Shown: one piece after another, positions 34,340 to 60,638 of the stretch
How the letters are laid out: each line of letters starts with the position of its first letter
Numbering within the stretch: position 1 is the first letter of the stretch
DNA from: a virus
Virus record (IMG/VR): IMGVR_UViG_3300001097_000004
Coordinates: 10,664 to 74,663 of that record
Strand: one strand, 5' to 3'
Length of the DNA stretch: 64,000 nucleotides
The notes under the pieces: generated by a model
What the model was told of the DNA's origin: nothing
Database searches by the model: none
What the model saw: the letters and a program-made list of their open reading frames with translations, nothing else
Translations under genes and position numbers: made by a program

Positions 34340-34790
34340 GTAGTGCATTATATCATCATTTCTCGTGTTTGTCAACATAATTGACAATATATTCCTCACA
34401 AAAATATGTGAGAGACATTCATGTACATTTCTATGAAATAATCTCACTATCTCAATGATGAGTTTCATTCATGACTATTATTGATAGACATTCATCATTC
34501 AATTAGCCTAGCTAATGTATATGCTTAGCTAGCTAATGTATATGCTTAGCTAGGCTAATGATAATCAATGAGCAATAATCATCAATGATGTGTTGACACT
34601 GGGCTGATAGTGTGCTAGGGTAGGCCTAGGATGTGTGTACAGCCCAGGTGTGAGCACTACTCACGTGCATAGGTGCGCCTGCCTGCCTGCTGCCTGCCTG
34701 AAGATAGCAGTGAGGCAAACTCCTCAGACCCCCCTCAGACCCCCCTCAGACCCCCCCCTCTACAGGCAAAAAATACCCCCCCCCTGTAGG
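34340..34790. repeat. AT-rich non-coding block with direct and inverted repeats
   Basis: TAGCTAATGTATATGCTTAGC x2 flanked by TAGCCTAGC/GCTAGGCTA; CCTCAGACCCC x3; GCCT runs. Confidence 0.8.
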
Positions 34791-40399: not shown

Positions 40400-40542
40400 G
40401 CCTACAGCCTATACTCTATATGCTCGATTGTCAAGTCGGCGGGCGCAGTACCGGGGACTTGGAATTTCTGCCCCGGGGGATAAAAAAATCACCGAATAAG
40501 GGAGACTATACGTCATCCCTTATCCGGGTGGTGTTTGGTACG

Positions 40543-46141: not shown

Positions 46142-46324
46142 CTAACGTACGGCGCTCATCGTGTCAAGCTCGGCCTGTAGAATGTACCCCGAACTCAGGG
46201 CTCCATCCGGGGACATATCGTTGACCCATGTCTCAGGGCAGCGCGTGCAGCTCCACACGATCATTCCGGAATTGATTGCGAACGGCAGCGAGCCTTGGTC
46301 GTGTCGGCAGGCATTAAATGGCAA
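46142..46324 (-). CDS. Small Cys-containing protein
   Basis: AGGAG RBS; C.H...CTRC. Confidence 0.65.
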   Translation of the reverse strand: MPFNACRHDQGSLPFAINSGMIVWSCTRCPETWVNDMSPDGALSSGYILQAELDTMSAVR

Positions 46325-46379
46325 GTGATCTCCTAGGTTGTGGTTGGTTGTTGCTTCTAGTGTAGCAGGTTAGGCGTTG

Positions 46380-59868: not shown

Positions 59869-60210
59869 CTACTTCTCTCCGGCGAAGATGTCTACCGCCG
59901 TGTCTCTACGTCGCATAGCTTTGAAGTCGCCTACGGCAATGAAGTTCAACAGGACGGCTCGGAATGAGAGTACGAATCCGAATGAGGTGGCCAGAATTAC
60001 GGGCATCACCAGCATTGATCCGTTGCCGAAGAATACGGCCCAGACCCAGGTTCCGGTAAACACAGACGTAAACGCCACAGCCAACCATGCTCCAACTCGA
60101 TGCTGTCTGATCATCTCAGATGCGTCCGGAAACTCGGGCTTTATGGGTGCCGGAGCACTTTTTTCAGGTACTGTAACTTCTACCTCAATGTTGGTATCTG
60201 ATTTGCTCAT
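59869..60210 (-). CDS. Two-TM membrane protein
   Basis: Two hydrophobic helices; TAGAGT-N6-ATG. Confidence 0.75.
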   Translation of the reverse strand: MSKSDTNIEVEVTVPEKSAPAPIKPEFPDASEMIRQHRVGAWLAVAFTSVFTGTWVWAVFFGNGSMLVMPVILATSFGFVLSFRAVLLNFIAVGDFKAMRRRDTAVDIFAGEK

Positions 60211-60242
60211 CTAAATACTCTAACACAGCCCGGTAAAAACAA

Positions 60243-60339
60243 CAAGAAGGCCCTGAGGAGTTCCCAACCACAAGAACTCAACTCAGGGCCTACCCATTAG
60301 GAGATCAAGGGGAGCCTATCAGGTCTCCCCCGTCATGCA
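60243..60339 (-). ncRNA. Candidate small RNA with two hairpins
   Basis: Promoter TTGCAG-N17-TAGAGT (60346-60374); only a 5-codon ORF; hairpins 60309-60330 and 60248-60291 followed by a U-rich tail. Confidence 0.5.
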
Positions 60340-60380
60340 AGTACTACTCTATCAGACCCGAACAGGAACTGCAAGCCTTT

Positions 60381-60638
60381 TCAGGAATCTTTTTCGTGGT
60401 TCCTTTTTCCGGGGTTGTCCTTGTTGATTTTGAAGCGTTCCCAGTGATTTCGTCTGCTGCGCCGACACTTGCTGCATCGACAGTCGGGGTACATATCCGC
60501 TTTTCCGCTGTTGCATGGTCGGCAACTGGGGATTCTGTTTTCTCGGGAATCGATACCCCCAAGAGCACGAGGCACGATATGGTCAATTGTTCGTGTCACT
60601 ACAGACAAGCTACAAAGGCAGCAAGCTAGTAGTGGCAC
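60381..60638 (-). CDS. HNH endonuclease
   Basis: C.LC, TIDHIVPRALGG.D..N...CRPCN..K. Confidence 0.85.
   Translation of the reverse strand: MPLLACCLCSLSVVTRTIDHIVPRALGGIDSRENRIPSCRPCNSGKADMYPDCRCSKCRRSRRNHWERFKINKDNPGKRNHEKDS

Follow-up and report, generated by a model that had tools for sequence, protein, structure and literature searches.

A probable phage transcription terminator that may double as a two-part antisense RNA on a distant leader

What does the 153-nt stretch downstream of an HNH endonuclease gene (60380-60228, minus strand) do in a viral contig from a hypersaline-lake metagenome? The window, that is, the whole 64,000-nt stretch of DNA analysed here, covers most of this 74.7-kb contig, whose completeness is 42% by CheckV estimate. 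A sequence-only reading had taken the locus for a separate small RNA gene of about 100 nt with its own promoter, whose hairpin loop would shut off the early genes as a single regulon. Here, we arrive at a different answer. The main hairpin is very probably an intrinsic terminator, and we see about an even chance that this terminator, as a 3' UTR, doubles as a specific bipartite antisense RNA acting on the leader in front of a 60-aa ORF (TTG 46324).

The AAA ATPase of the phage shows its closest likeness to the versions found in large phages of Microbacterium, Gordonia and 'Actinomycetia', and the host is therefore probably an actinobacterium. Genes between 36 and 64 kb of the window lie on the minus strand, where a scan for TTGACA-16/18-TANNNT returned 42 promoters. 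In 22 of these 42, exactly 6 nt separate the end of the -10 box from an ATG. This spacing indicates leaderless mRNAs and implies that the early transcriptome (36000-64000, minus strand) would be largely leaderless. Examples of such leaderless-spaced ATGs on the minus strand of the window are 44792, 45460, 46132, 46769, 48658, 50195, 58273, 59189, 61231 and 62587, and many of the leaderless mRNAs start with AUGAC(C/A)AAC/ACC, reading Met-Thr-Asn or Met-Thr-Thr. CA-rich early 5' ends occur in both the leaderless and the leadered class, for example AUGACCAACCAC and AACAACCACGAAGGAG. Leaderless mRNAs are common in actinobacteria (PMC3898074). The AAA ATPase of Microbacterium phage Pumpernickel, a distant relative with a different gene layout, is 56% identical over half its length. 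Five exact TTGACA-17-TANNNT-6nt-ATG sites were found on one strand of Pumpernickel (1218, 94160, 162267, 164335, 167350) and none with the reversed-pattern control, so leaderless-type promoters appear to be present in this distant cultured relative too.

Several other sequence elements were observed in the same region. The extended -10 word TGCTACACT, without TTGACA at -35, has three copies on the minus strand (46367-46359, 43923-43915 and 39287-39279), each 6 nt ahead of a CA-rich leader or a leaderless ATG, and it may mark a second promoter class. One gene has a promoter spacer, GGUUGGUGGUUGG, that is predicted to fold with its own leader, CCACCAACC, into a hairpin of -28 kcal/mol (47507-47467, minus strand) with the -10 box at the apex. 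Such a hairpin would be possible only in transcripts reading through from upstream, where it would sequester the leader just before the Shine-Dalgarno sequence. Exact antisense matches of 14-15 nt also link 34355-34420 with 40434-40502 (minus strand); the second region follows the 40.5-kb terminator, and the matches probably belong to a dispersed GGGACTTGGAAATTTCTG-type repeat that is found after several terminators.

Table 1 Coordinates of the features at the locus and of the sites that pair with it.
Feature	Position in window	Strand	Remark
159-aa gene	61231-60752	minus	first gene of the unit from leaderless promoter 61266-61238 (promoter list)
HNH endonuclease gene, 85 aa	60638-60381	minus	last gene of the 159-aa unit; Pfam HNH E=5e-8, PHROG HNH families
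Weak promoter-like site TTGCAG-17-TAGAGT	60374-60346	minus	PWM 3.9 bits
Second weak promoter-like site	-35 at 60341, -10 TAGGCT 60318-60313	minus	overlaps hairpin 2; PWM 3.2 bits
Hairpin 2, GGGGAG..CUCCCC	60331-60308	minus	predicted -15 kcal/mol; no U tail after it
Linker UGAUCUCCUA, single-stranded in prediction	60307-60298	minus	holds anti-Shine-Dalgarno CUCCU; unpaired probabilities mostly 0.5-0.96
Hairpin 1, Watson-Crick core	60290-60249	minus	predicted fold; 9 bp + UU bulge (2 nt) + 6 bp, apex UUGUGGUUGG
Apical loop UUGUGGUUGG	60273-60264	minus	exact sequence; 10 nt, all G/U
U-rich tail UUCUUGUUGUUUUU	60230-60248	minus	11 U in 14 nt; overlaps weak -35 of the next promoter
TAGAGT, 6 nt, ATG	60208-60222	minus	leaderless-type start of 113-aa gene (60210-59869); spacing as at 22 other promoters
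Loop complement, 10 nt	46347-46338	minus	exact match
Loop complement, 9 nt	43655-43647	minus	exact match
Loop complement, 9 nt	44788-44780	minus	exact match
Loop complement, 9 nt	45660-45652	minus	exact match
Loop complement, 8 nt	39263 region	minus	exact match
Loop complement, 8 nt	50181 region	minus	exact match
Proposed main target region	46325-46367	minus	extended -10 TGCTACACT at 46367-46359; predicted 28-nt leader 46352-46325
Twin apex AUUCUGGUCA	45741-45730 and 48758-48747	minus	perfect complement of 46131-46122

The layout of the locus is given in Table 1. ORFs within it are limited to frames of 5 and 28 codons, both without ribosome sites, which agrees with the earlier statement that no meaningful ORF is present; the two hairpins described at that time are likewise found in the predicted fold. 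The five-codon frame, AUGACGGGGGAGACCUGA (60336-60319, minus strand), begins 9 nt after the weak TAGAGT, opens with AUGAC like the leaderless genes and runs into hairpin 2, and it may be a decayed gene start. Further upstream, a 21-codon frame (60692-60627, minus strand) starts at a GTG with a good Shine-Dalgarno, GGAGG, and ends just inside the start of the HNH ORF in a different frame, which could represent either an alternative, true HNH start or a frameshift. On the downstream side, an M23 peptidase gene (Pfam M23) follows the 113-aa gene. A gene on the plus strand, behind a leader-like sequence there, was also considered and rejected, since no start codon follows and the region overlaps the HNH gene.

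The whole linker between hairpin 2 and hairpin 1 reads UUGAUCUCCUAAUGGGU. Hairpin 1 with its basal extension (60299-60240) has a predicted energy of -33 kcal/mol. In the minimum-energy fold, three G-U pairs close within its apex and leave UGGU open; opening the loop is predicted to cost 1.3-3.6 kcal/mol (3.6 for all 10 nt), compared with -14.6 kcal/mol for a perfect duplex. The folding model thus suggests a seed that is accessible in the loop, together with a mostly unpaired linker.

The features of hairpin 1 are those of an intrinsic terminator: a stable G+C-rich stem, a U tract directly 3' of it and a position at the end of a unit. It ranks among the three most stable hairpins in 34-64 kb, and its interrupted-U tail has the same style as those of the 14 other terminators of the phage. 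It lies about 90 nt past the HNH stop (60381), directly ahead of the next promoter-like start, where the co-directional unit ends. We consider that this terminator separates the unit driven from 61266 from the leaderless start of the 113-aa gene. Insulation is needed at a start of this kind, as transcription running through it would place the AUG inside a longer message with no Shine-Dalgarno sequence to mark it. A separate gene of about 100 nt is not needed as an explanation, since stem, tail and position are already those of ordinary terminators.

The promoter that had been assigned to this RNA turned out to be marginal. We built a position weight matrix (PWM) from 30 clear promoters, whose own scores were all at least 16.9 bits. 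With this matrix, the site at 60374-60346 scored 3.9 bits, compared with at least 14 for clear phage promoters, and Markov simulations predicted about 22 sites of at least 3.9 bits per strand by chance. The two weak sites of 3.9 and 3.2 bits are thus at a chance-level frequency genome-wide, yet only about 4% of 130-nt stretches would hold one. Equally weak TTGC-type -35 sites with good -10 boxes stand at some real gene starts (e.g. 52864, 37166 and 41043), and a weak internal promoter at the locus is therefore possible.

For the loop, complementarity to early 5' ends is real. The matches of 10, 9, 9, 9, 8 and 8 nt listed in the sequence-only reading were all recovered (Table 1), all on the minus strand just downstream of promoter-like sites, and antisense complementarity to the CA-rich tag is present at many predicted early 5' ends. 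With at most one mismatch, the loop-complement word has 14 copies against 4.0 +/- 2.2 expected, and nine of these form a cluster at 43.6-51.4 kb of the minus strand. The loop falls in the top 0.05% of minus-strand 10-mers for matching the 42 promoter-defined 5' ends, and complements of at least 7 nt are found at 13 of these ends compared with a mean of 3.2 for permutations. It outdoes 95-99% of 252 same-letter permutations, so the enrichment survives the shuffled-loop control that had been named beforehand. The mean energy of loop-only pairing at the 42 ends was -8.95 kcal/mol against -7.13 kcal/mol for the background (p=7e-5). When all accessible segments of the RNA were scored, the same 42 ends were no better than background (Mann-Whitney p=0.33). 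A preference for the early 5' ends is thus seen with the loop taken by itself and not with the whole accessible RNA, and targeting on a regulon-wide scale is no more than faintly suggested. As for the claimed shut-off, we found no support, and nothing points to delayed expression. Pairing of the loop with the 5' end of its own unit (61231) was examined as well and discarded, as it amounts to a trivial 7-mer.

A second seed, missed by the earlier reading, suggests a single specific target and not a regulon at large. The leader at 46324 consists, in order, of CCAACCACAA (46347-46338), CC and UAGGAGAUCA (46335-46326), which contains the Shine-Dalgarno AGGAG 5 nt upstream of the TTG 46324 that opens the 60-aa ORF. 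Because it follows TGCTACACT, a word that also stands ahead of two other gene starts, this leader is probably a true 5' UTR behind a predicted promoter. The linker is a perfect 10-nt complement of 46335-46326, including the Shine-Dalgarno sequence. The loop and linker matches are collinear, lie 2 nt apart on the target and have the correct antiparallel order, and the U tail can pair, using G-U pairs, with AGAAGCAACAA upstream of the loop target. For the 60-aa ORF itself, an ORFan, neither Pfam nor PHROG gave a family and the Atlas had no usable match.

A collinear 10+10 match of this quality came up in 2 of 3000 within-segment shuffles; among 9128 real minus-strand windows bearing the identical mask the figure was 8, and several of those were self-hairpins. 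The two nulls (shuffles and real windows) both give a rate of about 1 in 1000, and these p values are post hoc, as the second seed was spotted after looking. A cofold scan of 2792 windows, run without loop kissing, placed the 46324 leader first (ddG -21, z -5.7), with pairing that involves the linker. In a stem-masked energy scan, the leader site scored -38.5 with about 35 consecutive leader bases paired, against -31.1 for the next best site. None of 44 within-segment shuffles reached -38.5, and the margin was small (best shuffle -37.6); a loop rich in G/U, or a U tail, will pair with CA-rich leaders through composition alone. The top targets of the accessible RNA included no early 5' end other than 46347. 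Among 15 terminators with uniform, automatic segment definitions, a significant two-part match was found at only this one (7 of 500 shuffles). Judged from these comparisons, the complementarity to the translation-initiation region at 46324 appears to go beyond chance.

We propose the following mechanism. The stretch would form the 3' end of the unit holding the 159-aa and HNH genes, and hairpin 1 with its U tail would terminate transcription and insulate the leaderless promoter of the next gene. The antisense RNA would be released as the 3' UTR, or as an RNA of about 75-110 nt from either of the two weak internal promoters. On the 46324 leader, the linker would cover the Shine-Dalgarno sequence, the apical loop would cover the CA-rich tag just upstream of it, and the U tail would add G-U-rich pairing further upstream. 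With the ribosome-binding site blocked in this way, the 60-aa ORF would be translated less. The weaker fit of the loop to CA-rich tags at other early 5' ends may have slight side effects at most. A helix of about 17 bp stands between loop and linker, one at each end, and their target sites are just 2 nt apart, so both could pair in full at the same time only if the 7-nt AAUGGGU supplied slack or the helix melted in part. Target and RNA would share one promoter class, and no timing logic is evident. Structures, position, complementarity and statistics are the part that was computed directly; a stable RNA, pairing in vivo and a drop in translation are what we infer.

The apexes of the other terminators were compared in the same manner. 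One apex, AUUCUGGUCA, is common to the terminators at 45761-45711 and 48774-48733, and its perfect complement (46131-46122) is the 5' end of the leaderless mRNA (ATG 46132) of a 122-aa gene adjoining the 60-aa ORF. The two apex-targeted genes are thus neighbours, and the 122-aa gene is likewise an ORFan, with the same negative outcome in Pfam, PHROG and the Atlas. When the apex 12-mers of all 15 terminators were compared uniformly with 45 predicted 5' regions (null rate 0.0037 each), 3 of the 15 apexes had perfect 10-nt complements there, for P=2e-5, or 1.2e-3 if the twin loops count as one. No sense-orientation match was longer than 8 nt. A random-target-set control provides no independent null, as random windows re-sample the same true sites. 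We mention, as a tentative and rather unlikely extension, that terminator apexes may form a distributed antisense layer, in which the 3' ends of accumulating transcripts would titrate selected leadered and leaderless 5' ends. In such a layer, the 60.27-kb apex would mirror the 46347 leader, the 48.75- and 45.74-kb apexes would mirror the 46131 5' end, and a fourth anti-tag in the promoter spacer 47507-47491 could, according to the predicted fold, sequester the leader of its own gene in read-through transcripts.

The main competitor of the dual role is a plain intrinsic terminator of the HNH unit, with the next leaderless gene transcribed from its own promoter only and the complementarities being coincidental; we give it a substantial chance, short of even. 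The full terminator anatomy and the position speak for it, and coincidence would come more easily where the loop is rich in G/U and every early 5' end of the phage is CA-rich. Matches of 10 nt taken singly are frequent, with 17 for the 153-nt stretch against the 64 kb, and TGGTTGG is not rare, with 11 minus-strand copies. The absence of a preference of the whole accessible RNA for early 5' ends and the energies reached by same-composition shuffles fit this explanation as well. What it does not readily explain is a collinear match beside and over the Shine-Dalgarno sequence at the low rate seen in the nulls, its occurrence at a single terminator, and the three apexes with perfect 10-mers in 5' regions. 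In addition, a 10-nt apex made up entirely of G and U is itself unusual, as the loops of the other terminators are mostly 3-8 nt.

An independent RNA of about 100 nt with its own promoter, whose G/U loop silences CA-rich-tagged early mRNAs in the manner of GcvB and thereby shuts off early expression, appears improbable to us. The loop-only energies and the excess of complements of at least 7 nt speak for it, as do the weak TTGC-type sites at real gene starts and the GcvB precedent, in which a GU-rich seed silences many mRNAs through CA-rich translation enhancers (PMC3879156). Against these stand the chance-level promoter, the ranking of accessible-RNA targets, in which 46347 is the only early 5' end near the top, and a loop partly closed by G-U pairs with most of its matches at 7-9 nt. 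The promoter would also belong to the same sigma-A-type class as those of the targets and would provide no temporal switch. Highly improbable, in our view, is an origin at the level of DNA or history, with CAACCAC as a protein-binding word near promoters (an inverted copy lies upstream of the 113-aa promoter), or with the locus as a functionless, decayed inverted duplication of the 46.3-kb leader. CAACCAC does occur at fixed positions just past predicted start sites, the locus, read on its plus strand, resembles a leader (an A/C tag, then TTAGGAGATCA) interrupted by two hairpin arms, and the short collinear blocks CCCTGAG and GAGTT recur upstream of the target too. But the tag is strongly strand-specific, with 9 minus-strand copies and 1 plus-strand copy in 43-51 kb, the second seed over the Shine-Dalgarno sequence is an RNA-level signal, and the Shine-Dalgarno-like word on the plus strand has no start codon after it. 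Nor would one expect a neutral remnant to have its mirrored blocks precisely where the RNA is unpaired and the stem arms between them.

For comparative evidence, we searched widely. Megablast and blastn found no relatives in phage records. With tblastn, the M23 peptidase returned distant lysins only and the 159-aa protein had no match. Related loci sought in viral and metagenome contigs with the 113-aa, M23, AAA, HNH and 159-aa proteins gave no relatives, nor did scans with hairpin and gene-start patterns, and a collection of 5.8 billion proteins returned only the query protein itself. Among sequencing runs holding this DNA, one DNA run and no RNA run was listed. Population variants were represented by one near-identical contig from one DNA run, with no differences at the terminator or the leader locus. 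In Rfam, nothing reached the gathering score in the window, where the C4 antisense RNA covariance model and the gcvB model had no match, and 60100-60500 gave only noise at E up to 10.

If the dual role is true, a two-seed antisense terminator would offer a phage post-transcriptional control without extra coding space, and, with the twin terminator loops nearby, it would support the view that phage regulators commonly hide in terminator apexes. Should the match be a coincidence, what remains is an ordinary terminator. We know of no base-pairing regulatory RNA described as controlling the early genes of its own actinobacteriophage. Actinobacterial hosts translate many leaderless mRNAs and, to our knowledge, lack Hfq.

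Known systems share separate features with the proposed RNA. 3'UTR-derived sRNAs of the CpxQ, SroC and DapZ type have their seeds in 5' parts that are single-stranded, and the known examples come from enterobacteria that possess Hfq or ProQ. They resemble our case in that the terminator is common to the regulator and the upstream mRNA, and that the RNA may arise by processing or from an internal promoter in or after the last gene. The c4 RNA pairs through two sites, a' and b'. This antisense RNA of phages P1 and P7 controls the phage's own icd/ant operon, as summarised in PMC8201110 (citing Citron & Schuster 1990). It is the closest system in biology, being a phage antisense RNA that uses short, separate complementary stretches to block expression at a ribosome-binding region. 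Processing releases c4 from the transcript that also carries its target, and c4 forms a defined Rfam family, whereas the proposed target here lies 14 kb away in another unit, the seed-bearing hairpin is a terminator and no Rfam family matches.

For the regulon-wide idea and for the CA-rich 5' tag, the closest analogue is GcvB, whose GU-rich R1 seed, as described in PMC3879156 and in Sharma et al. 2007 cited there, targets CA-rich elements that lie within ribosome-binding sites or just upstream of them and double as translation enhancers. The GcvB seed lacks structure, depends on Hfq, is conserved and has been proven on many targets, whereas the GU stretch of the phage locus is the 10-nt apex of a hairpin with one target clearly above background. 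Closest in mechanism, and also in a Gram-positive setting, is the action of Staphylococcus aureus RNAIII on coa mRNA, where one structured RNA makes a two-part antisense contact, a duplex that covers the Shine-Dalgarno plus a hairpin-loop contact, and blocks initiation without Hfq (PMC2837412). RNAIII is a 514-nt bacterial effector of quorum sensing with many targets, and its loop contact lies in the coding region. In contrast, the RNA proposed here would be the 3' end of a phage transcript, its loop the apex of a terminator, and both of its contact sites would fall within a 28-nt leader.
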